64,000 bases of DNA from a virus. The stretch covers positions 32,001 through 96,000 of IMG/VR virus record IMGVR_UViG_3300045988_183134. The stretch is one strand, 5' to 3'. Below the pieces are notes generated by a model that was not told where the DNA came from, ran no database searches, and worked only from the letters and a program-made list of their open reading frames with translations. Positions within the stretch are counted from its first letter, which is position 1; the number at the start of each line of letters is the position of its first letter. Of the stretch, positions 1-50,528 are shown piece by piece. A program made the translations under genes and the position numbers.

Positions 1-2
1 AA

Positions 3-719
3 GTCTATTTCGTCGCCGAAACCCCCGATATCAACAAAGTTATCGAAATCTTCCTACCTAAGGATGACCGCGGCACCATTATGGATTCACACGAAATCCG
101 TGTGGACCTGTGCCGTGCCGTCATTCACATGGAGAAGAAGGGTGTCCGTGTCTTGAAGGTCCGCAACATTGAGGATACCAACAAGGCAAGCATCGACATC
201 TGGCACATGCCGGAATATCAGGAGGCTGCAGAGTCTCCCGTAAGCGATGTGGTCAATGCCTGCATTGAGTCCTGCTTTGATTCCGGTGCAATGTTCAATC
301 TGCCATGCAAAGCCAACCGCAAAACCCATGAAGTTTTTGCTGTCGAATGCTGCGCAAGCCCCGATGATGATGACTCGTTCAGTTATGCAGAAGTGAAAAT
401 CAACGGCAAGGATTATCCTATCAATTTTATTGACGATATTCTTCTCGAAAACAATGTTGATGATGCGCTGGATGAGTTTTATAGAATTCAGCAGACAGGC
501 GAGTATTGGCAGCCTGATGGCAACAAAACGCTGGATGATGCCATTCACGAATGTCGTTGGGCTATCCTGAAGGATGCCATCCAGAAGCGCGGACATGAGG
601 CTGTTGCTGATTTTGTCGGGACCGACATTTCCAGCGATACTTACGACCGCGTGATGGATGAAACCGAAGCCCAAATGCCGGACGAAGAGTTCGAGCGCTT
701 CTGGGAAAAGTACATCTAA
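3..719 (+). CDS. hypothetical acidic protein, probably 5'-partial
   Basis: Track ORF 81..719. The same frame stays open back to nt 3 and no SD precedes ATG81, so the gene likely starts upstream of the window. Confidence 0.5.
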   Translation, partial: VYFVAETPDINKVIEIFLPKDDRGTIMDSHEIRVDLCRAVIHMEKKGVRVLKVRNIEDTNKASIDIWHMPEYQEAAESPVSDVVNACIESCFDSGAMFNLPCKANRKTHEVFAVECCASPDDDDSFSYAEVKINGKDYPINFIDDILLENNVDDALDEFYRIQQTGEYWQPDGNKTLDDAIHECRWAILKDAIQKRGHEAVADFVGTDISSDTYDRVMDETEAQMPDEEFERFWEKYI

Positions 720-754
720 GAAACATCTCACACACAGAAAGGGAGCATATTACT

Positions 755-1081
755 ATGGCTATTTTCAATACCAACGAATTTCTCCACAAAACCTTCAGCA
801 AGACCATCTTTGGTACTGCTGCACTTCGTCCGGAAGCAGTTTGTGCAGACGGCTTCACCCTGTCGATTCAGGCAAGCGGCATGCACTACTGCATACCGAA
901 CGAAGACCTGTCGGACGGCAATTACTCTAAGGTCGAACTCAGCTACTTGTCTGAGGAGGTCGAAGAGTTTCTGCCGTTTGCTGAAGACGACGAGGCACCG
1001 CTGGCTACGGTCTACGGGTATGTGCCCGTAGAAACCGTAGAAGCGGTTCTGGCCAAGCATGGCGGCATCGTCAACGTTTAG
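755..1081 (+). CDS. hypothetical protein
   Basis: Track ORF. SD GAAAGGGAG lies ~8 nt upstream of ATG. TAG stop. Confidence 0.7.
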   Translation: MAIFNTNEFLHKTFSKTIFGTAALRPEAVCADGFTLSIQASGMHYCIPNEDLSDGNYSKVELSYLSEEVEEFLPFAEDDEAPLATVYGYVPVETVEAVLAKHGGIVNV

Positions 1082-1096
1082 GAAGGAGGAATACCA

Positions 1097-1426
1097 ATGC
1101 TAAAGACTTTCACTATCGTCGCCAATGAGGTCATTGGCTTATCCGCAACGGAATGCACACTGATTCAGTTTAGCTACAATCCGGAGCAAATCCGTGACCC
1201 CGAAACGGTCCTGCGCAGTGCTGTCATGGACTATCTCAAGACGGATGAAGGCAAACGACAGCTGGAAATCAACTGTGGTTGCTGGAACTGGGGCGATGTC
1301 GATGACATTCCCGGCTCGTTCTTCTTGAACTATGGTCTGACTAAAATCGCTCCGCCGGATGTGAATGTTGTCGTCGACCGCAACGAGAACTTCATGGACG
1401 ACTACGAGGATTGCGAGGAAGAATAA
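1097..1426 (+). CDS. hypothetical acidic protein
   Basis: Track ORF. SD GGAAGGAGG lies 8 nt upstream. Confidence 0.75.
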   Translation: MLKTFTIVANEVIGLSATECTLIQFSYNPEQIRDPETVLRSAVMDYLKTDEGKRQLEINCGCWNWGDVDDIPGSFFLNYGLTKIAPPDVNVVVDRNENFMDDYEDCEEE

Positions 1427-1444
1427 CAGAAAGGGCATGGAAAA

Positions 1445-2185
1445 ATGCGTATTTATAGCGCAAACAACGTATTCATAGAAGTTACGCGCCGGTGCAATAT
1501 GTGCTGTGCGCACTGCCTGCGCGGAGATGCCGAAAGCATCGATATTCAGGAGAAGTACATCGATGCTTTTCTCGACAGCTTTGAGAAGGGAGCTTATATC
1601 AGCTCTCTTACCTTTACCGGTGGGGAAATCTCTCTGAATATACCGGCAATTCGATACACCTTGAAAGCTGTCAAAGAGCGCGGTATCGCCGTTGGAAGCT
1701 TTTACATGGTCACTAACGGAAAAGCTGTCGATAAGATGGCTGACCTTGCTATGGCGAGTCTGGAGTGGTGGGCCTACTGCGATGAAAAAGATGACTATAT
1801 GTGCGGTCTTTGCATCAGCAGTGATAACTTCCACGAAGTAATCCCATATGAAAGTAAAAGTATCCTTAGTGGCTTGAAATATAACCGTAACGATAAGGTA
1901 ACGGACTTTCATCTGGCTTATTTACTGAACGAAGGGCGTGCTAAGAATCTCGATTCGAATATCTATAAGAAGCGTGAACCTCATGTAGACAAGCTCGAAT
2001 ACGAATTCAACAAAACCGGCGATATCGACTTTTACAGCGGCGAGCTGTACTTGAACGCCATCGGTGATGTCGTTTCCGGCTGCGATTGGTCCTACAAGTC
2101 GCAGAAGAAATATCGTTTTGGTAATGTAATGAACAAAAACTGGCTGGAGAACATTTCCAACAGCGAGTTGTACATTGCAAGCTAA
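1445..2185 (+). CDS. radical SAM domain protein
   Basis: CNMCCAHC (CxxxCxxC Fe-S motif) at aa 17-24, preceded by FIEVTRRC. Followed by terminator 2205-2238. Confidence 0.75.
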   Translation: MRIYSANNVFIEVTRRCNMCCAHCLRGDAESIDIQEKYIDAFLDSFEKGAYISSLTFTGGEISLNIPAIRYTLKAVKERGIAVGSFYMVTNGKAVDKMADLAMASLEWWAYCDEKDDYMCGLCISSDNFHEVIPYESKSILSGLKYNRNDKVTDFHLAYLLNEGRAKNLDSNIYKKREPHVDKLEYEFNKTGDIDFYSGELYLNAIGDVVSGCDWSYKSQKKYRFGNVMNKNWLENISNSELYIAS

Positions 2186-2255
2186 ACCATATCACTTATA
2201 CATTGCCACTGTTTTCCTACAGAAACGGTGGCTTTTTTAGAAAAGGAGACCACAA

Positions 2256-3689
2256 ATGACTGAAACAAAAGACATGTTTGAACAAATCAGCGCCATCTTA
2301 ACCGATAAGAAAGATAAGCCGTTTTCCTATGAGGAGCTTGCAGCAATGCTCAAAACTGACCCTGATGCCCTCAAAACCTTTGATGAGGTCTATAAGACAC
2401 AGGTTCTTGAAAGCGGAGAGCTGCATGAAAATATGCTCCAGTGGGATACAGCTACAGTCAAAGCAATTCTCGACAAAAAGGTCTACTTCCCACCGGAACT
2501 CAATTCGCTCATTGACCGCATCGTCACAGAACTGGTGCTTGAAACGCGTCTGTACATCTACAACGCGGAACGCGGTGGCTATTATGTGACATACTCTGCC
2601 AACCGCGACTTTATGACAGAGGTTACAAACGAGGAGTTGAAACGCTACCCCGAAGAACTCCGTCCGCAGCTCACCGGAAAGTTGATGAAGATTGACATTT
2701 CTGAGCCGTCGTACAAGGAACTGCTTCAAAACTACGCAGGCTACAAGAATGCAAAGAACGACAGCACAAAAATGTTCTACTACAACATGTTCCGTCAAGG
2801 TCTTGACATCCTCGACCTTGATGACTTCACTTATCAGATGCTTGAGATGAACCCCAACTCTATGGGCTTCTGGTTTCCTCCTCTGGTAGAGGGATTGTAC
2901 GGCAGCGCATTTTTCAAGGTTCCGGACACAAAAATTCTTCGCGTACCTATCACCATGCTGCAGCTTACCCGCCTTGGTTTCGAGACGTTGAATCCCGTTA
3001 CAAAGGAAATCGTGAACCGTTATTGCCAGAAAGTCTTCCATCTTGATGGATACGAAGACTATTTTATCAAAACGGGCACGTATTCTTCCAAATACGAATT
3101 CCGCAACGCTCATATCCATAACCCGAAGGAAATCAATGAGATGGGCGAGTATTTCTTGTTTTTGAATCATCTGACATGCTCGATGGCATCCCCTCTGAAC
3201 AATCGCTGCTTCTACGGCGCGAACACCACGAACGAGTGGGTCGTCAGAGAATACATCAAGGACAAAGAAAATAACCCCACCATCTACAACGGTTTGCCGC
3301 TGCACACTGAATATCGCGTGTTTGTGAATTTTGATACAAAGGAAATCCTTGGCGCAAGTCCTTATTGGCGCAGCGATGTTATGAAGAACGAATTCAAAAA
3401 AGTCAGCAGCCCACAGGAACGCCATGATTATGTTGTCTACAAGATGCATGAAGACATTCTGAACCAGCGTTACCACGAAAGCGTTCAAACTGTTCTGGCT
3501 GAGCTGAAGAAGGTTATTCCTCGCATTGAGTTGACAGGGCAGTGGAGCGTCGATGTAATGCGCAACGGCAATGATTACTACATCATTGATATGGCTCTTG
3601 CTGAGAATTCCGCTCTGAATGACTGCGTACCGAAAAATCTGCTTCGCGCTTATCCTCAGCAGTGGCTGCCGGGTGAATCGAACAGCTGA
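2256..3689 (+). CDS. ATP-grasp fold enzyme (phage R2K-like)
   Basis: Ordered ATP-grasp-like motifs: FIKTGTYSSK, WVVREYI, EYRVFV, and SVDVM...YYIIDMALAENS near the C-terminus. Confidence 0.55.
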   Translation: MTETKDMFEQISAILTDKKDKPFSYEELAAMLKTDPDALKTFDEVYKTQVLESGELHENMLQWDTATVKAILDKKVYFPPELNSLIDRIVTELVLETRLYIYNAERGGYYVTYSANRDFMTEVTNEELKRYPEELRPQLTGKLMKIDISEPSYKELLQNYAGYKNAKNDSTKMFYYNMFRQGLDILDLDDFTYQMLEMNPNSMGFWFPPLVEGLYGSAFFKVPDTKILRVPITMLQLTRLGFETLNPVTKEIVNRYCQKVFHLDGYEDYFIKTGTYSSKYEFRNAHIHNPKEINEMGEYFLFLNHLTCSMASPLNNRCFYGANTTNEWVVREYIKDKENNPTIYNGLPLHTEYRVFVNFDTKEILGASPYWRSDVMKNEFKKVSSPQERHDYVVYKMHEDILNQRYHESVQTVLAELKKVIPRIELTGQWSVDVMRNGNDYYIIDMALAENSALNDCVPKNLLRAYPQQWLPGESNS

Positions 3690-3810
3690 TACTCCTAGAA
3701 CGAAACTTTGATTCGGGTTCTTTCAGCAAAAAGCGTAGGAACCAAAATCATACGAAATGATTGTGTTGACACATAAAAACAAGTATAATATATGCAAGGA
3801 AGTGATAATA

Positions 3811-4263
3811 ATGGTTCTGTATCATGGCAGCGATGTAATAGTCCGCAACCCTGAGGTCAGAAAAACAAGGTACGCCAAAGATTTTTCATGGGGATTCTAT
3901 TGCACTAGCAACTACGAACAAGCCGCTCGCTGGTCAAAAAAAGGCAGGTCTCGTGGTATTGTCAACGTGTTTGAATATACAGAATCTCCCATGCTAAATA
4001 TTAAGAAATTCCCCGAAATGAGTGATGAGTGGCTTGATTTTATTGCTATATGTCGCTCGGGCAAACATCATGACTATGATATTGTGGAAGGACCCATGGC
4101 GGATGACACCATTTGGAACTACGTCAACGACTTTCTAAGCGGTGATATTAGCCGTGAAGCTTTTTGGGCGTTGGCAAAATTCAAGCATCCCACGCATCAA
4201 ATCAGCTTTCACACGGAAGTCGCTTTGAAATGTCTCTCTTTTAAGGAGGCGATTGAAGTATGA
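3811..4263 (+). CDS. DUF3990 family protein
   Basis: N-terminus MVLYHGSD...KDFSWGFYCTSNYEQAARW matches the remembered DUF3990 signature. Start moved to ATG3811, which has an AAGGA SD. Confidence 0.7.
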   Translation: MVLYHGSDVIVRNPEVRKTRYAKDFSWGFYCTSNYEQAARWSKKGRSRGIVNVFEYTESPMLNIKKFPEMSDEWLDFIAICRSGKHHDYDIVEGPMADDTIWNYVNDFLSGDISREAFWALAKFKHPTHQISFHTEVALKCLSFKEAIEV

Positions 4264-4709
4264 CTGAAACTGCAACCTACAGCAAAAACGATGTCTTTTA
4301 TACCTGCAGCCTGATTGAATATATCGGCCGCGTTACGAGGAATCATCGCAAGGATGTGGTTTCTGCTCTTGGCACAAACGGAGTCAAGGCAATTCTCGAC
4401 TCAGCGGATGTGTTTCACTGCCAGAGCTTTGAGCAATCTGCCGATGAAATTTGTGAGCTTTTTCCTGTGCCGGAAGGAACGTATGATACGGTGTCTAACT
4501 GCCACTACAAGGTTCCATCTTATACAGATATCGGAAAAGTGTACCAGCGCATCATCTTTGACTGTACTAGCACTCCTGGTGTCCAGGATGTAATTGATGT
4601 ATTTTCCTCGTTCATTAGCGATGACATCTCAGATTTTAATACTGCAACTTACTATTGTAATCCGAGCTATTTGTACCACTCATACAAGGCCGGAAAACTA
4701 CTGGATTGA
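4260..4709 (+). CDS. DUF3791 family protein (usual partner of DUF3990)
   Basis: ATGA overlap with the upstream gene. DUF3990/DUF3791 gene order is typical of Firmicutes. Terminator at 4722-4760. Confidence 0.55.
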   Translation: MTETATYSKNDVFYTCSLIEYIGRVTRNHRKDVVSALGTNGVKAILDSADVFHCQSFEQSADEICELFPVPEGTYDTVSNCHYKVPSYTDIGKVYQRIIFDCTSTPGVQDVIDVFSSFISDDISDFNTATYYCNPSYLYHSYKAGKLLD

Positions 4710-4947
4710 TTTTCAAAAGCAATAGCAATCAAGACCACTGCCCCAAAAAGGGTGGTGGTCTTATTTTTTTGCACAATACTTACCATAAATTACCAGAAAG
4801 AAAAACATTGTGCATCTGTGCGAATTGCATATAATACAAAATATAGAACGAAAGGCATCAAAAAACATCGTTGGTCGGGCAAAATCCGACCGAAAGGCTA
4901 GGGCGGGCTCAGTTTTGAACCTGCTCTTTCTTTTTATCGGAGGCTTT

Positions 4948-5475
4948 ATGTCAAACAAAGAAGAACGCATGAACCGCAATAAAAGCATCATCGAAGATTA
5001 CAAAAATAGAAAGCCGATTTTAGAAATCGCGAGGGAATATAATCTTTCAGAAACGATGTGCTACAAGATTCTAAAAGGTACGCAGGAGCCGCCTCGTTAT
5101 TTTGAAAAAAAGAGGAAGAGACTTACCACTCGAAATGAGCAAATTGTTAAACAGTATAAAGGCGGTATGACGGCCAGAGAATTGGGCAAGATGTACGGCA
5201 TTTCCATGCAGCGTATTTATGCAATCTTGCATTCGAGCGGAGAGTACGAAAGCCAAAAATACAATCATATTGAAACGGCTCTCAAAAAAGAGAAAAAGAT
5301 GCGGAACCAAACTTTTCTTGATGCTTACAAGAAAAATCCTCGAAAATCGATTATCGAGTTGAGCAGGGAGGTAAATATCAGCCCTTCACTAGGTTACCTT
5401 ATCCTTCATCAAAATGGGATTTACCAGTATAACGTAAAAGCCAGAGCTAAGGAGAATAGCGAAAATGCCGATTAA
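4948..5475 (+). CDS. DNA-binding protein with 3 tandem HTH modules
   Basis: Repeats such as ILEIAREYNLSETMCYKIL, ARELGKMYGISMQRIYAIL and IIELSREVNISPSLGYLIL. SD GGAGG before ATG4948. Confidence 0.7.
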   Translation: MSNKEERMNRNKSIIEDYKNRKPILEIAREYNLSETMCYKILKGTQEPPRYFEKKRKRLTTRNEQIVKQYKGGMTARELGKMYGISMQRIYAILHSSGEYESQKYNHIETALKKEKKMRNQTFLDAYKKNPRKSIIELSREVNISPSLGYLILHQNGIYQYNVKARAKENSENAD

Positions 5476-5983
5476 CAAGATTACCCACGTGTGTCTAACT
5501 CATGACAAAGTCAGGGCACGAAATGAAAAGATGCTGGAGGATGCCAAGAACGGTATGTCCCAGGAACAGCTGGCCGAAAAGTATCAAATCTGTGTTTCTA
5601 CTGTCCGATATAGTCTGAAGGACTTTTACGAAGAACAGGCCCGGCAGAGAAAAGCAAAGAAGAAAGCCTGGCAAACCCAGATGATTCATGAATATGAGAT
5701 GGGCGCAAAATCTCCGGAGCTTCAGGAAAAATACGGCATCAGTGGAACGCTCTTTTATCGGATTCTTCATGCGCACGGAAAGAATGGCCGACAAATCCAC
5801 AGCCAAAACCGTATCGAGACCGGCAAGAAAAGAAACGCCGAGATGGTCAGGAAATACAAGAACGGCGTTTCTGTCAAAGAGCTTGCGGAAGAATACGGGC
5901 TCAAAAAGGGAAGCGTATATCGCGCCATGAAGCGGTATAGTCCAGGCCCAGGGGAAAGTAAAAGTTGTCAAAGTGAGGAATAA
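5465..5983 (+). CDS. DNA-binding protein with 3 tandem HTH modules (paralog)
   Basis: Repeats QEQLAEKYQICVSTVRYSL, SPELQEKYGISGTLFYRIL and VKELAEEYGLKKGSVYRAM. SD AAGGAG upstream. Confidence 0.7.
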   Translation: MPINKITHVCLTHDKVRARNEKMLEDAKNGMSQEQLAEKYQICVSTVRYSLKDFYEEQARQRKAKKKAWQTQMIHEYEMGAKSPELQEKYGISGTLFYRILHAHGKNGRQIHSQNRIETGKKRNAEMVRKYKNGVSVKELAEEYGLKKGSVYRAMKRYSPGPGESKSCQSEE

Positions 5984-5987
5984 TTGC

Positions 5988-6941
5988 ATGGCTGCATCAA
6001 AGAAAGATGTTGCGAAGCAGCAGGTCAAAGAAGACCGCGAAAAGGTTCGGGAAATGTATCTTTCTGGCAAAACTGTCAAGGAAATCGCCAAGGAAACGTA
6101 TTTTTCAAGCTCTTATTGCTATGCCATGGTGAGAGACCTAGCAAAAGAAAAGAATCTTGCAAAGAAAGCAAAAAGAGCACCTCTCAACGAAGCTATGATT
6201 CAAGATGCGAAAGCCGGGATGACGGTTGCTGAAATCGCAAAGAAGCATGGCGTGACTTATCAGCAGTGCTACTATACTGTTTCTGAATACGCTCAAGCTA
6301 CGATTAAGAAGAACAAGAAAAAGCAGTCTGCTGCCACGAAAGTTCGCAATGCGGCTATGTTGGAAGATGCGAAAGCCGGAATGACTGATAAGGAAATCGC
6401 CAAAAAATACTTTTTGTCTCGAAGCAGTGTCCGTACCGTCCTTGCAGGGCATTTACATACAAATTCCAAAAAGTTGGATGAAAGGCGCAAGGCGATTCTT
6501 GCGGATTATGAGGCAGGAACGTCCTCAAAAGACATCTGTGAGAAATACGGTATTTCAAAATCCACTCTTTACAAGGACATGCGCCAAGTTGAAAAAACCT
6601 GTCAGGAATACTATCACAAGGCGCTGAAAGACAAGACCAATCAAAGGAATTCCGATATTCGAAGCAAAATCGAAAGAGGGGTCTCGGTCAGCACTATTGC
6701 CAAGGAATACGGAATCTCTAAAACGGCGATTTATGAAACGTTTCATCAGGAAAATGTCAGAGCTGGAATTTTACAGAAACGCGGCCGTCCGCGAAAAAAC
6801 ACGGAACGTAATGCACTGATTGCTAAACGCCACAGGGAAGGCGAGAAGGTGCAGGCGCTTGCCACTGAATATAATCTCTCTGTTTCGACGGTAAACACTA
6901 TTTGCAGTAGAAACAAAAATCAGAATATAACCTCATATTAA
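5988..6941 (+). CDS. DNA-binding protein with 6 tandem HTH modules (paralog)
   Basis: Six ~50-aa repeats of pattern R..I...y..G.s..eIAkeYgiS.stvY. SD GTGAGGA before ATG5988. Terminator at 6943-6972. Confidence 0.7.
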   Translation: MAASKKDVAKQQVKEDREKVREMYLSGKTVKEIAKETYFSSSYCYAMVRDLAKEKNLAKKAKRAPLNEAMIQDAKAGMTVAEIAKKHGVTYQQCYYTVSEYAQATIKKNKKKQSAATKVRNAAMLEDAKAGMTDKEIAKKYFLSRSSVRTVLAGHLHTNSKKLDERRKAILADYEAGTSSKDICEKYGISKSTLYKDMRQVEKTCQEYYHKALKDKTNQRNSDIRSKIERGVSVSTIAKEYGISKTAIYETFHQENVRAGILQKRGRPRKNTERNALIAKRHREGEKVQALATEYNLSVSTVNTICSRNKNQNITSY

Positions 6942-6986
6942 CAGGCTGCCATTTGGCGGCCTATTTCTTTTTTAGGAGGAAATGAA

Positions 6987-7901
6987 ATGACAGACGACGT
7001 ACGTAATTTAATTCGATTTGTGGTGGATGGCGATATTCGTAACGCGCAGACTCAGTGCCGAATCATGCTTGAAAAGAATGTACCCGAAAAGGACGCCAGG
7101 TTCAAAGAAAACGAACTCAGAAAGTTGAATCTTCTGAAACCGGAACTGATTCAGCTGCCCGCCAACCTGGAAAACCTCTTGATTGCGGAGGATGCCACGA
7201 ATTTCCCTGAGAGCCGGTTCCTGCTCCGCGAGGAGGAAGAAACAGTCATCAACAAGCTCTTGGCCACCAGAAAAGCAGCTTTAGCCATCAAGGAGCTTGG
7301 CATCCACTATACTTGCTCTTTGCTTTTGACGGGCCTTCCTGGTGTTGGTAAGACTGAATTGGCCCGCTACATTGCACACAAGGCAAATTTACCGTTTGTT
7401 TTCCTGAAATTTTCTGGCCTTGTCAATTCTGCTCTTGGCCGGACACAGCAGAACATCGGCAGAGTGTTCGATTACGCAAAGCGCACGCCCTGCGTTCTTT
7501 GTGTTGATGAAATTGATGCTATCGGAATGTGCCGTGGCGGCCGTGATGACGTCGCTGAAATGAGCCGCGTCACCATCGCATTGATGCAGGAACTTGACCG
7601 GCTCCCGAATGACGTCATTCTCATTGGCACTACAAACCGCGTCGATAACCTTGACGAAGCCCTCATTCGCCGATTCACTTTCAAACACCGCGTCAAGCCT
7701 TTAGGCGACGATGACATGAAAGAACTGTGCAAAAAGTTCCTTGCTTCGGCAGACTATCCCTTCACGGAATCCGAACTCGACGAACTCTGCCATTCGCTGC
7801 GTGAACAGCGGACGGCCAGCGCCGTTGTCAATGCCTGTACAGAACGTATCGTTGCACATATCGTATCGCAGCTGCCTGAAAATTCGACAGATGCCGTGTA
7901 A
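6987..7901 (+). CDS. AAA+ ATPase (classic AAA, FtsH/Cdc48-like module)
   Basis: Walker A GLPGVGKTELA, Walker B VLCVDEID, sensor-1 GTTN, and SRH-like LDEALIRRF. Confidence 0.85.
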   Translation: MTDDVRNLIRFVVDGDIRNAQTQCRIMLEKNVPEKDARFKENELRKLNLLKPELIQLPANLENLLIAEDATNFPESRFLLREEEETVINKLLATRKAALAIKELGIHYTCSLLLTGLPGVGKTELARYIAHKANLPFVFLKFSGLVNSALGRTQQNIGRVFDYAKRTPCVLCVDEIDAIGMCRGGRDDVAEMSRVTIALMQELDRLPNDVILIGTTNRVDNLDEALIRRFTFKHRVKPLGDDDMKELCKKFLASADYPFTESELDELCHSLREQRTASAVVNACTERIVAHIVSQLPENSTDAV

Positions 7902-9765: not shown

Positions 9766-10011
9766 ACAATTGTTCTCAGGAAGAGGAACGGCTCCTGAGA
9801 CATCAAGGTTTTCCTTTCCCCAATCTTGGTCGCATGGCTTCATTTGAGCTGACACAGGTGAAGCGTGAAAATCATCCGTTTCATAGTAATATCCTTCCTT
9901 TCTTTGGCGTGGGTAACTCCGCGCCAGCCGTCCAAGTAAACAGCCTCCACGCGGCGGACGGTGGACAACAGATGTTTCCGTGTTCCGGGCATCTGGCTAA
10001 TGTTTGTATTT

Positions 10012-10087
10012 GCTGGTTTAGCTCAGCTGGTAGAGCAACTGATTTGTAATCAGTCGGTCATCGGTTCAAGTCCGATTTCCAGCTCCA
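10012..10087 (+). tRNA. tRNA-Thr (TGT)
   Basis: Cloverleaf: gctggtt ta gctc agctggta gagc a actga tTTGTaa tcagt cggtc atcgg ttcaagt ccgat ttccagc t CCA. Two U-U mismatches at the base of the acceptor stem. Confidence 0.75.
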
Positions 10088-10560
10088 GACGCTATCCGTT
10101 GGATGTATCGAAATCACATGATACGATGCTATACACAACATCTGGCGGACAGCATGCCACCCATTAAGGCGGCCTCCTCGTGGCGGGTGGCGGACAGCGG
10201 CTCTTGCGGCTGCTGACGAATGTCTTAGAAGCATGCAAACGTACGAGCATCCCCGTCAAGTCGGGGCGCATCCAGACGCGACACAGCCGTAAAGGCGAGA
10301 TTGCTGCACGGCAACTGGTAAGTTTCGCCGCAGTCTCACACACAGCCCAACGACAACCGTTAACCCGATTTGACAGGGAATCAACGACAGGGCTCAAAAT
10401 TTGAAGTTGACCAACACCCAAGCGCTTTCTTGGATTCTCGCGTATCGTCAACGATGAGGTTCGCAAGATTGTCAGGTGGTGTGAAGATGACATCCGGGGA
10501 TGACGACCTACTAAACGGATGTCATGGCGGGGCTAAGTGAGGGTTCACCCGCAATCTTAT

Positions 10561-10635
10561 GCAGGTATCGTATAACGGCTAATACTCCGCCCCTCCAAGG
10601 CGGAGACGCGGGTTCGACCCCCGCTACTTGCTCCA
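10561..10635 (+). tRNA. tRNA-Gly (TCC) with C at position 33
   Basis: Cloverleaf: gcaggta tc gtat aacggcta atac t ccgcc ccTCCaa ggcgg agac gcggg ttcgacc cccgc tacttgc t CCA. The loop is CCUCCAA rather than CUUCCAA. Confidence 0.8.
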
Positions 10636-10907
10636 CACGTCGCAGTCACCGTACGCCACGACGTTAAACTTGGTGAGCATGGTCCACTTGTGGTCCGCTG
10701 TCCGAATGTCGATGAGACAGCCTCAAAAATAATAGACAAACAGGTGCTGTGCCTGAAAGTATTCGAAAGTCCCGGTGTTAGTCGCGAATAAGACCGGAAA
10801 ACGGTGAATAGGGTACAATACAGAATCTATCGGCGTGGCTGCCGAATGGTGCTGGATGCGAGTTGGCTTCTCGCTCAAGGGGTGACCAGCATAAAACACC
10901 CTATCGT

Positions 10908-10983
10908 GCTCGATTAGCTCAGTTGGTAGAGCAGCGCATTCGTAACGCGCAGGTCGGCAGTTCGAACCTGCCATCAAGCCCCA
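10908..10983 (+). tRNA. tRNA-Thr (CGT)
   Basis: Cloverleaf: gctcgat ta gctc agttggta gagc a gcgca ttCGTaa cgcgc aggtc ggcag ttcgaac ctgcc atcaagc c CCA. One mismatch each in the acceptor and anticodon stems. Confidence 0.7.
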
Positions 10984-11021
10984 TTACCCAATGAAGCGAC
11001 AATAGAAAGGAGATGAAACTT

Positions 11022-11405
11022 ATGGAACAGGCAATTATCAATGTTGAAGGTACGACTACCATTGAAACCGCTGCAGCGGCAAAAAAGCTGATTGAAATGT
11101 TTGGCAATCAGAACGTCCGCGCCATCGCTGTCAACCGTGTAAACGACAAGAGCGACGAGGTCATTGTTGAACTCGATTTCGTTCCCGGTTTGGCACCGCA
11201 TCTGCACGGCTTCACGCTTCAGGTTAATGGCTTGACCTGTGGTTATGCTGGTACTGGTCCTTCCAATCTGTATGAAGTCCTGCAGGCGGCTGGCGTGAGT
11301 GAAGCTCAGGTAGCACGCGAGGACATCACTCAGAAGAGCACAAAAACCATTCCTCTGCGCCTGGAACGCGCCGTGACTCAGTACGGCGACTTCCAGTTTG
11401 CGTAA
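11022..11405 (+). CDS. hypothetical protein embedded in the tRNA region
   Basis: Track ORF 11013..11405. The SD GAAAGGAG abuts ATG11013, so ATG11022 (9 nt spacing) is preferred. Confidence 0.6.
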   Translation: MEQAIINVEGTTTIETAAAAKKLIEMFGNQNVRAIAVNRVNDKSDEVIVELDFVPGLAPHLHGFTLQVNGLTCGYAGTGPSNLYEVLQAAGVSEAQVAREDITQKSTKTIPLRLERAVTQYGDFQFA

Positions 11406-11434
11406 CGCTATTTGGCGGGCTTGACCCGCCATCA

Positions 11435-11510
11435 TGGAGGGATAGCTTAGCTGGATAAAGCACCTGCCGCAAAGCAGGGTATCGATGGTTCGAGGCCATC
11501 TCCCTTCTCC
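11435..11510 (+). tRNA. tRNA-Cys (GCA)-like with a 6-nt anticodon loop
   Basis: Cloverleaf: ggaggga ta gctt agctggata aagc a cctgc cGCAaa gcagg gtatc gatgg ttcgagg ccatc tcccttc t CCA. U73 fits Cys identity. The loop is one nt short. Confidence 0.55.
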
Positions 11511-11870
11511 ATCCAGACACCCTTTCGCTTCCTTTCGCCAAAGGTATCTGGGGTATTGTACTGCATTGCGTGTAGTACGGCCAATCAGGCGCGGAACTCC
11601 GAAACCATACCACGAAGAATTTTATCCTCTCCGCGCAGCATGGACATGCGATTTTACGGGGATAAATTCAAACCGAAATTGTGTCGAGTGGCGAAGACGG
11701 TTGCGACACTGGCGAAGCACATATCTGCTTCGTCAACCATCCATGAGAAAGCCTCCACGTGGCAGATGGTGGGCAACGCAGCAAAGCTGCGGCTGATTTC
11801 TTTCAAACCGGTATCTGAATAAATGCAGATAAATAGACGAAAAAATCAAAAAAGCAAAGGAGTACACAGC

Positions 11871-13004
11871 ATGAGTAATCAGAAAATCATCAAAGCAATC
11901 GCAGGGATTGCAGCAGCCGGTATGATGGCAACTTGTCTGCCTGTCGCAGCATTCGCAGCCACCGGCGACACCTATCATTTCTCTTTCAGCAACGGTTCTT
12001 CCCAGGACCTGGCTCCGGGCGGCTCTATGACGTTCCCGGCAAGCCAGTATGACTACGGTTACTGGATTACCCTGCAGGGCCACGGCGGCTACACCTACAA
12101 CTACTATCCCGGCGACACTCTGCCGTACGATGCAGTTGACCAGTGGTTCACCGCTGACGGCATCACTTCCTGCTATGCGGCCGAAGGTAATCCGCGTTCC
12201 ATCACCATCAACTATCAGATTGACGGCAACACTGTGCTGACCGAAACTGACACCGCCACTTTCCCCGGCAGCGTTGATGGTCAGAGCGTTGAAGCCTGGA
12301 CCACGGATTCCGGTGATACTTACACCGCATCCAGCAAGAGCCTGAACCATGACCGCCTGTTCTACTACCTGGGCGACGACATCCACGACAATGTCCTGAC
12401 CCTGAAAGCCACTTCTGCATCCACTCCCGATGACGGCAAGGATGACAACAAGGGCGATGACAAGGGCGATGTCACCAACCCCGACGATAAGGGCGACAAC
12501 AAGGGCGACAATACCGGCGACAGCGGCACCACCACTCCCGATGACAAGGGCGACGTAGTGGCCCCCGATAAGGACAACACCGGTAAGGACAACACTTCTA
12601 CCGGCTCCAACAAGGGCAACGGTACTACCACCACTACTCCGACCGCTCCTCGCAAGAACGTTGAAGTCTCTGAGCACGGTGAAATTGCCGCCGCTATTGC
12701 CAATGGCACCTGGGGCAATGAGTACACCGTCTGCACCAGCTGTGGCTATCACAACTGGACCCGCAAGGGTAACGTTTACGTCTGTGACCATTGTGGTCAT
12801 GAAGTTCTGACTGTTAAGGGCGCTGATGGCGTCAAGGGCTATGCTGGCACTCTGGCTGGCAACGAGCCCCAGTACGCTTCTACCTCTGAAGCTCAGGCTG
12901 CTGCTGAAAAGCGTGAAGCCGCTTATGCCGCTTCCATCGCTGCTTTGCAGGCACAGGTTGCCGCTCGTGAAGCTGCTTATGCTGCTTCCCTGGGCATCCA
13001 CTAA
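11871..13004 (+). CDS. secreted protein with D/K/G-rich low-complexity linker and C-terminal CxxC zinc ribbon
   Basis: Signal peptide MSNQKIIKAIAGIAAAGMMATCLPVAAFA-A. Repeats DDKGDNKGD. CTSCGYH...CDHCGH. SD AAAGGAG before ATG11871. Confidence 0.8.
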   Translation: MSNQKIIKAIAGIAAAGMMATCLPVAAFAATGDTYHFSFSNGSSQDLAPGGSMTFPASQYDYGYWITLQGHGGYTYNYYPGDTLPYDAVDQWFTADGITSCYAAEGNPRSITINYQIDGNTVLTETDTATFPGSVDGQSVEAWTTDSGDTYTASSKSLNHDRLFYYLGDDIHDNVLTLKATSASTPDDGKDDNKGDDKGDVTNPDDKGDNKGDNTGDSGTTTPDDKGDVVAPDKDNTGKDNTSTGSNKGNGTTTTTPTAPRKNVEVSEHGEIAAAIANGTWGNEYTVCTSCGYHNWTRKGNVYVCDHCGHEVLTVKGADGVKGYAGTLAGNEPQYASTSEAQAAAEKREAAYAASIAALQAQVAAREAAYAASLGIH

Positions 13005-13041
13005 TTTGCCATCCTCTAACTAACGGTAATCGATAGTTATT

Positions 13042-13115
13042 CGAGGATTCGCCAAACGGTAAGGCATCAGGCTTTGACCCTGACAACGGTTGTTCGACTC
13101 GACCATTCTCGGCCA
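13042..13115 (+). tRNA. tRNA-Gln (TTG)
   Basis: Cloverleaf: cgaggat tc gcc aaacggtaa ggc a tcagg ctTTGac cctga caac ggttg ttcgact cgacc attctcg g CCA. Confidence 0.8.
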
Positions 13116-13195
13116 ACGCTCACTTTCATGCGCATCGGAAGTGAGATTCCTCAAAGCTGTGTTCCCATAAGCAAGGCACGGAAGATGCGCGACAA

Positions 13196-13271
13196 GTGCT
13201 CGTAACTCAATCGGTAGAGTACCCGACTTTTAATCGGGGTGTTCGGGATTCGATTTCCCGCGAGCGCACCA
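13196..13271 (+). tRNA. tRNA-Lys (TTT)
   Basis: Cloverleaf: gtgctcg ta actc aatcggta gagt a cccga ctTTTaa tcggg gtgtt cggga ttcgatt tcccg cgagcgc a CCA. Confidence 0.85.
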
Positions 13272-13302
13272 TGCCCGGCAGAGCATTATCTGCCACTTTT
13301 GT

Positions 13303-13378
13303 GGGTGTATAGCTCAGTAGGCAGAGCGGCGGACCGTTAATCCGTTTGTCGCAGGTTCAAATCCTGCTACGCCCGCCA
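13303..13378 (+). tRNA. tRNA-Asn (GTT) with C at position 33
   Basis: Cloverleaf: gggtgta ta gctc agtaggca gagc g gcgga ccGTTaa tccgt ttgtc gcagg ttcaaat cctgc tacgccc g CCA. Confidence 0.8.
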
Positions 13379-13381
13379 TAA

Positions 13382-13459
13382 GCTCCTCTGGTGAAATTGG
13401 CAGACACAGTGCGCTCAAACCGCACCGTTTTGAGGGTTCGAATCCCTCGGGGAGTACCA
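13382..13459 (+). tRNA. atypical tRNA, anticodon CAA (Leu-type D-arm but short variable region)
   Basis: Cloverleaf: gctcctc tg gtg aaattggcaga cac a gtgcg ctCAAac cgcac cgtttt gaggg ttcgaat ccctc ggggagt a CCA. G1-U72 pair. Confidence 0.6.
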
Positions 13460-13488
13460 TGTCCGGCAGTACAACAACTGCCATTTAT

Positions 13489-13564
13489 GGGTTGTTAGCT
13501 CAGCTGGTAGAGCAACGGACCGTTAATCCGTGGGCCGCAGGTTCAAACCCTGTACAACCCGCCA
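13489..13564 (+). tRNA. tRNA-Asn (GTT), second copy, also C33
   Basis: Cloverleaf: gggttgt ta gctc agctggta gagc a acgga ccGTTaa tccgt gggcc gcagg ttcaaac cctgt acaaccc g CCA. Confidence 0.8.
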
Positions 13565-13567
13565 TAT

Positions 13568-13642
13568 GCTCCAGTGGCGAAACTGGCAAACGCGGCGGCT
13601 TTATGTCCCGTTTTACTCTGGGTTCGACTCCCAGCTGGAGTA
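13568..13642 (+). tRNA. atypical tRNA-like gene, anticodon ambiguous (TAT if the loop is 7 nt)
   Basis: Cloverleaf: gctccag tg gcg aaactggcaaa cgc g gcggc ttTATgt cccgt tttact ctggg ttcgact cccag ctggagt a. C-C mismatch at 31-39 (or a 9-nt loop). No encoded CCA. Confidence 0.45.
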
Positions 13643-13649
13643 TCTATAT

Positions 13650-13725
13650 AGGGGTGTAGCTCAAGTGGTAGAGCAGCGGTCTCCAAAACCGCTTGTTGCA
13701 TGTTCGAGTCGTGTTACCCCTGCCA
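13650..13725 (+). tRNA. tRNA-Trp (CCA)
   Basis: Cloverleaf: aggggtg ta gctc aagtggta gagc a gcggt ctCCAaa accgc ttgtt gcatg ttcgagt cgtgt tacccct g CCA. Confidence 0.8.
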
Positions 13726-13735
13726 CAATAAGAAA

Positions 13736-13769
13736 AGCCGTCCTCACATAAGAGGCGGCTTTTTGTTTT
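13736..13769 (+). terminator. rho-independent terminator ending tRNA array 2
   Basis: AGCCGTCCTC-acataa-GAGGCGGCT followed by TTTTTGTTTT. Confidence 0.8.
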
Positions 13770-13807
13770 GGAGAGTATACAGACCAAAAAACTAAACCAC
13801 AAGTTGA

Positions 13808-13835
13808 TTGCAGATGTGCAAAAACATGGTATAAT
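13808..13835 (+). promoter_or_regulatory. sigma-A-type promoter
   Basis: TTGCAG (13808-13), 16 nt spacer, TGgTATAAT (13827-35). Confidence 0.55.
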
Positions 13836-13869
13836 AATATCAGAACGAAACGAAAGGAGATACCCCAAA

Positions 13870-14010
13870 ATGCTGTGCAACACTGTTAATGTCATGTCGT
13901 ATGAGTATAGTTACGAATATTCTGAGTTCATGTCCTTTGAACGCAGTTTTATTTCTCATACTCCTCGACAGGCAAAAACAGACCATGTACAGATGCGGTG
14001 CGTCTTCTAA
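13870..14010 (+). CDS. hypothetical small protein (46 aa)
   Basis: Strong SD GAAAGGAG 8 nt before ATG13870, inside track ORF 13768..14010. Confidence 0.45.
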   Translation: MLCNTVNVMSYEYSYEYSEFMSFERSFISHTPRQAKTDHVQMRCVF

Positions 14011-14095
14011 GCGATAACTGCATGTCATAGCTGCTTGTCGAGATTTCGGCAGGCAGCTTTTTTGTTGCCTGCAATACAGAAAGGCAGCAAGAAAA

Positions 14096-14317
14096 ATGAA
14101 CGTTCCTACTATTGATATCCAGCAGACAGGTGCCAATATCAAGGCCCTGCGAAAGGCAGCAGGCATCAAGGTGAAGGATGTGGCAGACATGCTCGGTGTA
14201 TCTCCGCAGGCGGTTGCTAAATGGCAAGCCGGAACAGCGCTTCCCACCATCGATAACCTTGTGATATTAGCAGCAATGCTCGATACGAAAATTGATGACA
14301 TCCTTGTCATCGCATAA
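14096..14317 (+). CDS. XRE-family HTH transcriptional regulator
   Basis: IKALRKAAGIKVKDVADMLGVSPQAVAKWQAGTALPTIDNLVILAAML is a canonical HTH_3/Cro-C1 pattern. Confidence 0.85.
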   Translation: MNVPTIDIQQTGANIKALRKAAGIKVKDVADMLGVSPQAVAKWQAGTALPTIDNLVILAAMLDTKIDDILVIA

Positions 14318-14346
14318 ACCCTCGCCGCAGGATTGCGGCTATATAT

Positions 14347-14426
14347 GGCCCGTTGGACGAATTGGTAGAGTTGCCGCCCTTTCACGGCGGAGGTTATTGT
14401 GGGTTCGAAACCCACACGGGTCACCA
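14347..14426 (+). tRNA. tRNA-Glu (TTC)
   Basis: Cloverleaf: ggcccgt tg gac gaattggtaga gtt g ccgcc ctTTCac ggcgg aggttatt gtggg ttcgaaa cccac acgggtc a CCA. Confidence 0.75.
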
Positions 14427-14427
14427 T

Positions 14428-14503
14428 GCTTCTGTAGCTCAACAGGTAGAGCAGTGGTCTGAAGAGCCACGTGCAGCTGGTTCGAATCCAGCCGGAAGCA
14501 CCA
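14428..14503 (+). tRNA. tRNA-Phe (GAA)
   Basis: Cloverleaf: gcttctg ta gctc aacaggta gagc a gtggt ctGAAga gccac gtgca gctgg ttcgaat ccagc cggaagc a CCA. Confidence 0.85.
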
Positions 14504-14527
14504 TCGAGGTTTTATACCTCATTCTAT

Positions 14528-14612
14528 GTGTCGGTATGCAAGTGGTTAAAGCAAACGGTCTGTAAAACCGCTCCGTTACGGTTCACTGGTTCGAATCCAG
14601 TCCGACACACCA
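14528..14612 (+). tRNA. tRNA-Tyr (GTA), class II
   Basis: Cloverleaf: gtgtcgg ta tgc aagtggttaa agca a acggt ctGTAaa accgc, long variable arm tccgttacggttc, actgg ttcgaat ccagt ccgacac a CCA. Confidence 0.85.
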
Positions 14613-14615
14613 TAA

Positions 14616-14689
14616 GGCCCCTTCGACAAGTTGGTCTAAGTCGCCAGCCTCTCAAGCTGGAGTCGGCAGTTCGAGTCTGCCAGGGGTCA
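14616..14689 (+). tRNA. tRNA-Glu (CTC)
   Basis: Cloverleaf: ggcccct tc gac aagttggtctaa gtc g ccagc ctCTCaa gctgg agtc ggcag ttcgagt ctgcc aggggtc a. No encoded CCA. Confidence 0.75.
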
Positions 14690-14725
14690 TACAAGCACCT
14701 ATGTTATGTCAAAAAGGTGCATTAT

Positions 14726-14815
14726 GCAGAGGTCGCCTAACGGTAGGGCAGCAGCTTGCTAAGCTGCCGTCGCGGAAATCGCGGCATGTGAGTTCGAATC
14801 TCACCCTCTGCGCCA
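14726..14815 (+). tRNA. tRNA-Ser (GCT), class II
   Basis: Cloverleaf: gcagagg tc gcc taacggtag ggc a gcagc ttGCTaa gctgc, long variable arm cgtcgcggaaatcgcggca, T-arm gtgag ttcgaat ctcac, cctctgc g CCA. Confidence 0.85.
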
Positions 14816-14818
14816 TCT

Positions 14819-14906
14819 GCTTGCTTGTTCGAGTGGTTGATGAAATCGGTCCAGAAAACCGACGATGGGAGACTGTCCGAAGGTTCGAATCCTTCAGCAA
14901 GCGCCA
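14819..14906 (+). tRNA. tRNA-Ser-like, class II, unusual loop CCAGAAA (anticodon AGA with C33)
   Basis: Cloverleaf: gcttgct tg ttc gagtggttgat gaa a tcggt ccAGAaa accga, long variable arm, gaagg ttcgaat ccttc agcaagc g CCA. Confidence 0.65.
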
Positions 14907-30387: not shown

Positions 30388-32454
<2,067 letters not shown>

Positions 32455-49179: not shown

Positions 49180-50025
49180 ATGTATTGCATTCAGTATGAC
49201 GAAATCTGCAAAAAGCACAATTTTGAGCTGAAACACGATGCCCTTGGTGAACGCGTAACCCTCGAGTACCCAGCCGATTCTGTCCCGAAAGATACCATTC
49301 GTCTTTTTCAAAATCATCTTCCTGAGGGAGTATCGGCTATGGCTGAAAAGTACAGCAGCGACCGTTTTGCCATATTCAAGTACAATGCTGCAGCGGCAGC
49401 AGGGAACACCATCGGTCTTACTGAGACCCTGGAAAAAAACAAAAAGGTCTCCGCAGCTCTCTCTGATTTGGCGGACGACCTGAAACAGGCAGAGCTGGAA
49501 GCCAAGACTTGGGTTTGCACCGACCCTGATACATGCCAGTGGCGACGTCAGGTTGGCGGAACCCGATACGAGCTATACGACATTTTCGAAGCTCCAAATG
49601 GCACCTATTTTGTCGTACACGGTGAAGTAGACCCGACCGAGCTTGACCCGGATGACTACGACCAGCTGCTGGAGGCATATTCCGGTTTGCTGGACTCTGC
49701 CAACTGTGAAAGCGAACGCTGGGCATTGATTGCTGAGGCGCAGTTTGAGACCGAAGAACTCTCGATGGAGCGCGAACGCTTTTCAACTTATGAAGGAGCC
49801 GAAAGGGCAATTTGGAAAAAGGTTGGGGCTGACGTTTCAGATGAGAATTCTGCGACCGAAACCCGCCTTGATGCGATTCGGAAACTCGATAAGTTTCATC
49901 TTGCCGTCTTTCTGAACGATGTTCACAGCGGTGCAAAAGACTTTCCTTCCAACAACATGAGCTGGTGTGACTGGCTCAATAAGCCTGATGATGGTCATTT
50001 GTTGGATGTGAAGACTGCTCGATGA
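49180..50025 (+). CDS. hypothetical acidic protein
   Basis: Track ORF. SD AAAGGAG upstream. Confidence 0.75.
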   Translation: MYCIQYDEICKKHNFELKHDALGERVTLEYPADSVPKDTIRLFQNHLPEGVSAMAEKYSSDRFAIFKYNAAAAAGNTIGLTETLEKNKKVSAALSDLADDLKQAELEAKTWVCTDPDTCQWRRQVGGTRYELYDIFEAPNGTYFVVHGEVDPTELDPDDYDQLLEAYSGLLDSANCESERWALIAEAQFETEELSMERERFSTYEGAERAIWKKVGADVSDENSATETRLDAIRKLDKFHLAVFLNDVHSGAKDFPSNNMSWCDWLNKPDDGHLLDVKTAR

Positions 50026-50510
50026 AACAAGTATGCGTTAAAGCTGATGATAGCCAAACCATCACTGCTATATATGAATTTCTGCACGACTTGGATAATG
50101 AGTATAGCAATTTTAGTAAATGGTACTATAGTACAGTCGTTCCCGGATTGGCAAGTGAAAATCGGATAATTTATACTGTTCTGGACGATGGGAAAATAGT
50201 TGCCGTTCTAATACTAAAAGATTCTGATGAAAAGAAAATTTGTACATTAAGAGTAGCTGAACATTACCGCTGCCAAGGGATTGCTACAAAATTGCTAAAA
50301 ATCGCACATCAGGCATTACAATGTACAAATCCACTCATTACCGTTTCATCAATTCATATCAACGAATTTGAATTTCTGCTAAAGAAAAACGGCTTTACCC
50401 TTTATAAAAAATACGAAAACTACTACAAGCAAGGAATTGTAGAATATGCTTTTAACGGCTTATTGCCTGAAAAGCAAAACGATTGCCGCTTGTCGCAAAA
50501 TGTGGTATAA
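50022..50510 (+). CDS. GNAT-family N-acetyltransferase
   Basis: VAVLILKD...LRVAEHYRCQGIATKLLKIA (acetyl-CoA-binding R/Q-x-x-G-x-A/G motif) and ...KKNGF. ATGA overlap. Visibly lower GC. Confidence 0.65.
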   Translation: MKQVCVKADDSQTITAIYEFLHDLDNEYSNFSKWYYSTVVPGLASENRIIYTVLDDGKIVAVLILKDSDEKKICTLRVAEHYRCQGIATKLLKIAHQALQCTNPLITVSSIHINEFEFLLKKNGFTLYKKYENYYKQGIVEYAFNGLLPEKQNDCRLSQNVV

Positions 50511-50528
50511 TAGTAAAGAGGTGATACC

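Follow-up and report, generated by a model that had tools for sequence, protein, structure and literature searches.

Four tRNA genes in the 64,000-nucleotide stretch of viral DNA analyzed here (positions 32,001 to 96,000 of IMG/VR record IMGVR_UViG_3300045988_183134; hereafter, the window) carry a cytidine at position 33 of the anticodon loop (C33) in place of uridine (U33), a near-universal base that is among the most invariant in biology and that shapes the U-turn of the anticodon. They belong to an array of 17 tRNA genes identified with ARAGORN and the Rfam tRNA model (10012-14906), of which 12 have the canonical U33 and a fifth deviant gene, for a Cys-like tRNA, has an anticodon loop of only six bases. 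All 17 tRNA genes, and the ribozyme matches described below, are on the plus strand. On sequence evidence, the four C33 tRNAs may be working, selectively maintained decoders that escape recognition by U33-dependent host anticodon-loop enzymes, a joint claim that we favor tentatively and to which we give somewhat less than even credence. Both the escape as the selective advantage and the host factor that C33 evades are elements that we infer within this same claim.

The loops were obtained with ARAGORN and with the Rfam tRNA covariance model (RF00005, gathering score 29 bits), which is an independent method of the tRNAscan-SE type. The gene for tRNA-Gly(UCC) (10561-10635; 56.0 bits) has the loop CCTCCAA on the stem CCGCC/GGCGG. 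The two copies of tRNA-Asn(GUU), which are the top-scoring tRNAs of the window in the Rfam analysis (copy 1, 13303-13378, 68.5 bits; copy 2, 13489-13564, 67.1 bits), share the loop CCGTTAA and are paralogs with different acceptor and anticodon stems, the latter being GCGGA/TCCGT and ACGGA/TCCGT, respectively. The class II tRNA-Ser(AGA) (14819-14906; 47.6 bits) has the loop CCAGAAA, the stem TCGGT/ACCGA and G73, and its long variable arm appears as an insert in the Rfam tRNA alignment. The Cys-like tRNA (11436-11511; 46.4 bits; anticodon GCA, U73) has the six-base loop CGCAAA on the stem CCTGC/GCAGG. It is listed by ARAGORN as type "??" with a two-base anticodon (ca), and in the Rfam model its sole gap falls exactly at position 33 (C-GCAAA). 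With the GCA anticodon and U73, the gene therefore reads as a Cys tRNA that is missing U33, and all five deviations hit one nucleotide position. A preliminary description of this stretch had reported C33 in the Gly, both Asn and the Ser-like tRNA, a six-base loop in the Cys-like tRNA and normal loops in the remaining tRNAs; both methods returned the same C33 loops, the 12 other tRNAs all have U33, and only the start of the Cys-like gene was shifted, from 11435 to 11436. Neither a refolding with canonical U33 nor pseudogene-like scores, two of the outcomes that the description had named as contrary to it, were seen, as the Rfam model folds the genes alike and scores them far above the gathering score.

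All five deviant tRNAs form the RF00005 cloverleaf (46.4-68.5 bits), in which the stems are intact, the conserved bases of the D and T loops are present and the CCA end is encoded, and all five lack the seven-base loop with U33. Apart from this position, the C33 tRNAs are the most canonical ones of the window (47.6-68.5 bits), so the deviation is a specific one. None of the four C33 tRNAs has the low score, broken stems or lack of conservation of a pseudogene, a conclusion that is less certain for the six-base-loop tRNA, the relatives of which are nearly all identical. C33 is present in 4 of the 16 seven-base loops in the window, as compared to 2 of 97 tRNAs in six cultured phages that were picked as a baseline without regard to position 33 (binomial P ~3e-4). 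Among cultured phages, the roseophage DSS3_MAL1 has two C33 tRNAs and T5 has none. Contigs from some ten separate metagenome data sets contain the same tRNA sequences as the window, and C33 is thus not an assembly error.

An open reading frame (ORF) of 130 amino acids inside the array has 74 relatives in human-gut contigs of IMG/VR (contigs of up to 222 kb), while an exact look-up of its sequence returned a metagenome contig only. The survey of related phages that the preliminary description had called for found C33 to be invariant: in the 74 related loci, the loop CCTCCAA is present in 73 of 73 copies of tRNA-Gly(UCC), and the loop CCAGAAA in 45 of 45 copies of tRNA-Ser(AGA). The loop CCGTTAA is present in 117 family copies of tRNA-Asn(GUU), which comprise 21 distinct sequences and vary in their anticodon stems (GCGGA, ACGGA, ACAGA, GCGGG/CCCGT). 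In the more distant relatives (L070, L072-L074 and the provirus locus L394 described below), about one-third of the positions in the Gly gene differ but the loop is unchanged, and the acceptor, anticodon and T stems of this gene change compensatorily among relatives (e.g., CCGCC/GGCGG versus TCTGC/GCAGA). Some family members have extra Asn copies with a normal CTGTTAA loop (seven in total) and thus hold U33 and C33 Asn tRNAs together, and such side-by-side copies have the look expected of an escape variant. The six-base loop was found in 70 of 71 related copies, and the gene is identical in the provirus, in which the neighboring protein is only 86% identical; at the syntenic place in L070 and L072-L074 there is a normal tRNA-Ala(UGC) with G3:U70. 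Damaging anticodon variants are rare in the same arrays (Gln UUG to UUC in six loci, Leu UAA to UAU in three), and the fixation of C33 with remodeled stems while such variants stay rare argues that C33 is old and fixed rather than a segregating defect. A comparison of nucleotide diversity between tRNAs and spacers across the 74 relatives gave a divergence of 2-5% throughout, the family being too uniform for this comparison to have any power.

Signs of selection on position 33 were also obtained from 1,650 distinct co-resident tRNAs, that is, tRNAs other than the target of the scan by which they were retrieved. U occupies position 33 in 1438 of these, C in 208, G in 3 and A in 1, such that the base is C in 208 of the 212 cases other than U. 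In silico A33 and G33 mutants of the window tRNAs were detected equally well by ARAGORN, so the scarcity of purines is real and points to selection for a pyrimidine at this position. Among co-resident viral tRNAs, C33 is present in 8 of 25 distinct Gly(UCC) sequences, as compared to 0 of 134 for Tyr, Phe, Trp, Cys and Leu(UAA) taken together (Fisher P ~1e-7; like the pooled figures, these are indicative only, the samples being phylogenetically non-independent and without denominators). The pyrimidine-only pattern and the isoacceptor bias argue for functional tRNAs and not for decay.

Outside the family, one genome from each of 185,579 species was scanned with an Asn-C33 pattern (D-arm GCTCAG, loop CCGTTAA, T-loop GGTTCRA), which yielded 101 stretches that fall into three settings according to ARAGORN. 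In the first, soil Acidimicrobiaceae, Myxococcota, Planctomycetes and Sarcina have very large tRNA arrays that contain several more C33 tRNAs. The second is an array of 10-11 tRNA genes with a GC content of about 59% that was found in Collinsella genomes (nine loci) and also in IMG/VR viral contigs (six contigs), and which is thus a prophage array. Here, tRNA-Asn always has C33, the Gly(UCC) loop is CCTCCAA or CTTCCAA and the Ser(AGA) loop is CCAGAAA or CTAGAAA, with U33 and C33 toggling between near-identical Gly genes and likewise between Ser(AGA) genes. The trio of C33 tRNAs for Asn, Gly(UCC) and Ser(AGA) is common to the window and the Collinsella prophage, and the gene sequences are unrelated. 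The third setting is a lone Asn(C33)-Glu(UUC) pair with covariation in the acceptor stem that is conserved in at least 14 species of gut Bacilli (16 loci in metagenome-assembled genomes (MAGs) labeled Bacilli, Bacillales, Enterosoma, Mollicutes or Coprobacillus), in which tRNA-Asn combines C33 with G1-C72. In one of these loci (L116), the pair is flanked by genes for prolyl-tRNA synthetase (proS), an aminopeptidase and a SpoU methylase, which indicates that this tRNA is chromosomal and presumably working, and in another (L122) the neighboring Glu gene also has C33. Judging from the chromosomal tRNA-Asn of gut Bacilli, C33 is presumably compatible with normal translation.

In viral contigs, C33 was identified in tRNA-Asn(GUU) in at least 117 stretches (at least 62 loci outside the family), in Thr(UGU) in 54 stretches (42 loci confirmed by ARAGORN), in Lys(UUU) in 35 (30 confirmed loci), in Phe(GAA) in 24 (18) and in Ala(UGC) in 15 (14), all of these being counts without denominators. 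The Asn-C33 genes comprise 136 distinct sequences that form at least 57 clusters at 80% identity and have 69 anticodon stems. A scan for Gly(UCC)-C33 in which a pyrimidine was required at position 39 gave seven true matches, a figure that excludes the family of the window and is not a count. No general pattern was found for the six-base loops elsewhere in arrays as deletions of U33, the odd loops being idiosyncratic.

Further features of these other arrays were observed. In the MAGs of soil Acidimicrobiaceae (at least 17 loci), arrays on megabase contigs hold as many as 30 tRNA genes within 8 kb, and C33 is frequent there in the four queuosine tRNAs, namely Tyr, Asp, His and Asn, as well as in Glu, Leu(CAA), Val(GAC) and Thr(GGU). 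In the Collinsella array, the loops of the Phe and Cys tRNAs have G32, and a Trp tRNA has an extra arm that is long.

No close relative of the window was found among cultured phages. Its gene content is phage-like, with a NAD-dependent ligase, an RRXRR-HNH protein, a tail lysozyme, YopX, a Bro/KilAC antirepressor and several PHROG families. A 477-amino-acid ORF (2256-3689) resembles proteins of SPbeta-like Staphylococcus phages and of other Bacillota phages and has an 86%-identical homolog that is annotated in Oscillospiraceae bacterium SCCA1. This homolog also sits in a stretch labeled as a 120,666-bp provirus inside a 267-kb contig, and the provirus locus L394 is syntenic with the window, with the same Thr, Gly(C33), Thr and six-base-loop tRNAs. 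The homolog and the synteny suggest that the family represents a large temperate phage of the Oscillospiraceae (Clostridia), and by these sequence links it is a provirus of about 120 kb in an Oscillospiraceae gut bacterium. Searches of about 60 ORFs in the window against Pfam, PHROG and NCBIfam revealed no tRNA-modifying enzyme, queuosine gene, RNA ligase/kinase pair, deaminase or tRNA nuclease. A radical-SAM protein (1445-2185) was considered as a candidate for QueE and rejected, as it gave no match to QueE. Asn codons account for 5.6% of all codons in the 57 predicted plus-strand genes of the window, and the usage of Asn, Gly and Ser codons in the window showed nothing decisive.

Published enzymology suggests what a change from U33 to C33 could achieve. 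The E. coli TsaBCDE complex fails to install N6-threonylcarbamoyladenosine at position 37 (t6A37) on a U33C tRNA (PMC8887486), and the minimal element of the E. coli tRNA-guanine transglycosylase is UGU, that is, U33-G34-U35 (Nakanishi 1994, as cited in PMC1635277). Since U33C blocks TsaBCDE and breaks the UGU element, the phage tRNA-Asn is predicted to lack both t6A37 and queuosine. Colicin E5, in turn, cleaves a U33C minihelix like the wild type and needs only a pyrimidine before GU (PMC1635277), and the K. lactis gamma-toxin cuts a C33 substrate with normal kinetics (PMC2275089).

In the mechanism that we tentatively favor, U33 to C would be the sole substitution that evolution tolerates here, as it retains a pyrimidine where the anticodon loop turns, and it would remove the base that is read by several anticodon-loop enzymes while decoding is kept. 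G34 of the phage tRNA-Asn would carry no queuosine, because the transglycosylase needs U33-G34-U35, and A37 would carry no t6A, with C33 acting as an anti-determinant for the bacterial TsaBCDE. The phage would in this way provide its own set of tRNAs for Asn, Gly(UCC) and Ser(AGA), distinct from the host cognates and insensitive to a host defense, toxin or regulatory enzyme keyed on U33 or on those modifications. An escape from nucleases would be either indirect, via the missing modifications, or would involve an uncharacterized enzyme. The Cys-like tRNA with the six-base loop may be an extreme version of the U33 change or an inactive relic. A broader proposition, which we regard as doubtful when taken as a whole, is that U33 to C, perhaps along with loss of U33, defines a widespread and previously unremarked class of "stealth" tRNAs in phages, prophages and bacterial arrays, that these tRNAs decode while evading the t6A37 synthase and the queuosine transglycosylase and thereby escape an undescribed tRNA-targeting immunity or toxin, and that the Asn, Gly(UCC) and Ser(AGA) trio shared by two unrelated gut prophages is the mark of the target set.

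Several points weigh against escape from U33-dependent enzymes. Gly(UCC) and Ser(AGA) tRNAs normally carry neither t6A nor queuosine, and avoidance of these modifications thus explains Asn only. The change from U to C is the commonest type of mutation and the least harmful replacement, and part of the C33 pattern could represent tolerance rather than advantage. According to ARAGORN, the Lys, Thr and Tyr tRNAs of the same array keep U33. The scan counts come without denominators, the difference from the host cognates is drawn solely from a negative genome scan, no gene for a relevant tRNA-acting enzyme was recognized in the window, and the two characterized anticodon nucleases mentioned above are indifferent to U33C (PMC1635277, PMC2275089). 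The latter result also weighs against direct nuclease evasion, in which an anticodon nuclease would recognize U33 or cut beside it and the C33 copies would serve as uncleavable Asn, Gly and Ser spares. Substitutions at the sites of tRNases are an established escape route for phages (PMC10264068), as in T5 against AriB of the PARIS system (PMC12409363), a cutter beside position 33 exists in CdiA-CT EC536, which cleaves between positions 32 and 33 (PMC11724271), and the conservation, the recurrence on mobile elements, the toggling in Collinsella and the paired U33 and C33 Asn copies would all fit an arms race. Yet U33C substrates are cut normally by colicin E5 and by gamma-toxin, the two nucleases for which this has been tested, and AriB, which targets Lys(UUU), Thr(UGU) and Asn(GUU), cuts at positions 40/41, far from position 33 (PMC12409363). 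No such enzyme was identified in the window or in the fetched loci. We know of no candidate nuclease for Gly(UCC) or Ser(AGA), and we consider direct evasion unlikely. The preliminary description had viewed these tRNAs as nuclease-resistant replacements for host tRNAs, in keeping with which the deviations are specific, conserved, under selection and located on a mobile provirus; its example of colicin E5-like enzymes as the nuclease evaded fails, as the U33C substrate is cleaved as well as the wild type, and colicin E5-type escape is ruled out by these published data (PMC1635277).

Near-neutral drift would require no evaded enzyme at all: in redundant accessory tRNAs, the mildest change at position 33 would become fixed in some lineages without advantage. 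This is plausible, given that C33 occurs at low frequency in every isoacceptor tested in the viral contigs (Asn, Thr, Lys, Phe and Ala), that arrays picked for one C33 tRNA show 8-15% C33 among their others, and that the family holds other odd tRNAs, including point variants of the anticodon, the six-base loop and the short "Leu" tRNAs described below. The toggling between U and C in the Collinsella arrays could likewise be drift, and diversity in the family is too low to show that the tRNAs are more constrained than the spacers. It is weakened, however, by the fixation of C33 in all 73, 117 and 45 copies of the Gly, Asn and Ser genes despite covarying, remodeled stems, by the strong isoacceptor bias (8/25 versus 0/134), by the same three isoacceptors being hit in an unrelated array, and by the 4 of 16 loops in the window versus about 2% in unselected cultured phages, and we judge drift to be improbable as the explanation. 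Dead or non-decoding genes, that is, pseudogenes, processing signals, primers or substrates of C-to-U editing, with the six-base-loop tRNA as the foremost candidate, are a very remote prospect for the set as a whole. Poor decoding is expected of a six-base loop, the syntenic place of this gene is taken by the normal tRNA-Ala in a sister clade, and further array loops of six or eight bases look idiosyncratic; against this stand the intact stems, conserved D- and T-loop bases, CCA ends and high model scores of all five genes, the compensatory stem evolution of the C33 genes, the identity of the six-base-loop gene in a provirus with an 86%-identical neighboring protein, and the lack of a recognizable deaminase in the window. 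Pseudogene status is thereby contradicted for the four C33 genes, to judge by their sequences, and the six-base-loop gene may be one. Just as remote as dead genes is the prospect that the phage copies mimic host tRNAs that themselves have C33 and so match the host's translation and modification apparatus. At least 14 gut Bacilli species do have a chromosomal C33 tRNA-Asn, one of them with C33 in the neighboring Glu as well, and their GC content of 38-51% spans the 47% of the window, but the phage Asn sequences are dissimilar to those of Bacilli, the family is a provirus in the Oscillospiraceae, and the matches to Clostridia in the species scan are prophage-like arrays only. No chromosomal Asn-C33 was found in Oscillospiraceae in the scan of 185,579 species, a result that depends on the pattern used. 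Gut Bacilli, which had been considered as hosts on the basis of the matching GC content and the chromosomal Asn-C33, were rejected on the evidence for an Oscillospiraceae provirus.

We also compared the C33 tRNAs, which we tentatively regard as escaping U33-dependent enzymes, to known systems. The hypothesis that phage tRNAs with substitutions in the anticodon arm escape host tRNases was put forward by van den Berg et al. (2023) (PMC10264068), and related cases are the Lys, Thr and Asn tRNAs of T5 against PARIS AriB (PMC11464382, PMC12409363) and a phage tRNA-Tyr against retron effectors (PMC11555353). The general premise of the preliminary description, that phage tRNAs with anticodon-arm changes escape tRNA-directed defense, is therefore established (PMC10264068, PMC12409363). 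As in these cases, the window has phage-encoded cognates that differ in the anticodon arm and stand beside or instead of host-like copies, and tRNA-directed immunity is known to target Asn, among others. Unlike in the window, the known cases alter bases recognized or cleaved by the nuclease (e.g., positions 39 and 41 in the case of AriB) and leave U33 in place, with the 23 tRNAs of T5 all having U33 save for one dubious call; in the window it is the near-universal U33 that is changed, a change that recurs across many isoacceptors and phages and is not known to defeat any nuclease. A natural, functional C33 tRNA is the cytoplasmic initiator tRNA-Met of multicellular eukaryotes, in which C33 is an anti-determinant for the bacterial and yeast t6A enzymes (PMC8887486). 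The window tRNAs are instead phage-encoded elongators of the bacterial type for Asn, Gly and Ser without initiator features, as their anticodons are UCC, GUU and AGA rather than CAU, and their stems are ordinary. Dense clusters with unusual features and several C33 tRNAs are shared with the tRNA arrays of bacteria and mobile elements (Acidimicrobiaceae, Myxococcota, Planctomycetes, Sarcina and the Collinsella prophage), from which the array of the window differs in being located on an Oscillospiraceae provirus and mixed with genes and ribozymes. No paper that describes C33 in phage or array tRNAs was found in the full-text literature, from which the subscription literature may differ. The C33 loops fit the known theme of phage tRNAs being made unlike those of the host; what is unusual is that the changed base is the near-universal U33 and that the change is widespread.

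The array of the window contains its 17 tRNAs of different specificities within 4.9 kb on a provirus-type mobile element, with protein genes and ribozymes interspersed among them. Nearly all of these tRNAs have an encoded CCA, and ARAGORN found no suppressor tRNA. A ribozyme of the hepatitis delta virus (HDV)-like, theta type (9927-10007; Rfam RF02682, 47.9 bits, gathering score 44) ends 4 nucleotides upstream of the first tRNA of the array, tRNA-Thr(UGU), and probably has a role in transcript processing. Two weaker RF02682 matches were located about 70 nucleotides downstream of tRNA-Thr (10156-10227; 34.1 bits) and 225 nucleotides downstream of the Cys-like tRNA (11736-11803; 40.7 bits), and none of the three matches in the array region abuts a C33 tRNA. 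Theta ribozymes are found directly downstream of tRNAs that are mostly suppressors and mostly lack CCA, in phages with hosts that are mostly Bacteroidota (PMC10879173). The window resembles the theta ribozyme-tRNAs of gut phages (Kienbeck et al., 2024; PMC10879173) in combining a gut phage tRNA cluster with HDV-like ribozymes but differs in that its best ribozyme match precedes the first tRNA, that CCA is encoded in nearly all of the tRNAs and that there is no suppressor.

Other tRNAs of the array also have unusual features. The tRNA at 13567-13644, which has no encoded CCA and carries G37, has the anticodon UAU (called as Ile) in the window and two other loci and UAA (Leu) in 56 relatives. 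Together with the tRNA at 13382-13459 (CAA), it represents Leu-anticodon tRNAs of 75-78 nucleotides in which, in contrast to the bacterial class II Leu tRNAs, the variable region is short and the D stem has three pairs. The tRNA-Gln(UUG) at 13042-13115 has the anticodon UUC in six relatives and is otherwise identical in sequence. A normal tRNA-Ser(UGA) with the loop CTTGAAA is located downstream of the six-base-loop tRNA in one related locus (L001, 8075-8163), with equivalents in 64 relatives, while ARAGORN found no tRNA-Ser(UGA) in the window. Elsewhere in the window, at 50022-51086, a GNAT acetyltransferase is encoded directly upstream of a zeta-toxin/AAA_33-like P-loop kinase, and a DUF3990 protein (3757-4263) has a weak match to ADP-ribosyltransferases; the acetyltransferase and kinase pair and the DUF3990 protein are possible toxin-like or counter-defense genes. 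Upstream of the region shared with the window, positions 1-7400 of the provirus locus L394 encode a Cas7-family protein, a UvrD-like helicase and a protein with a metallo-beta-lactamase fold that has a faint match to the anti-Pycsar protein Apyc1. The stop codon TAG is rare in the 57 predicted plus-strand genes of the window (3, as compared to 33 TAA and 21 TGA).

For annotation, the results indicate that tRNA genes with C33 should not be discarded as pseudogenes. If C33 elongator tRNAs are selectively maintained, they would provide a natural test of what U33 is needed for in a tRNA. C33 would, if the tentative reading presented here holds, offer an easy way to recognize by sequence those phage tRNAs that are made unlike the ones of the host, and it would bear on why phages carry tRNAs at all, which is a question of long standing.

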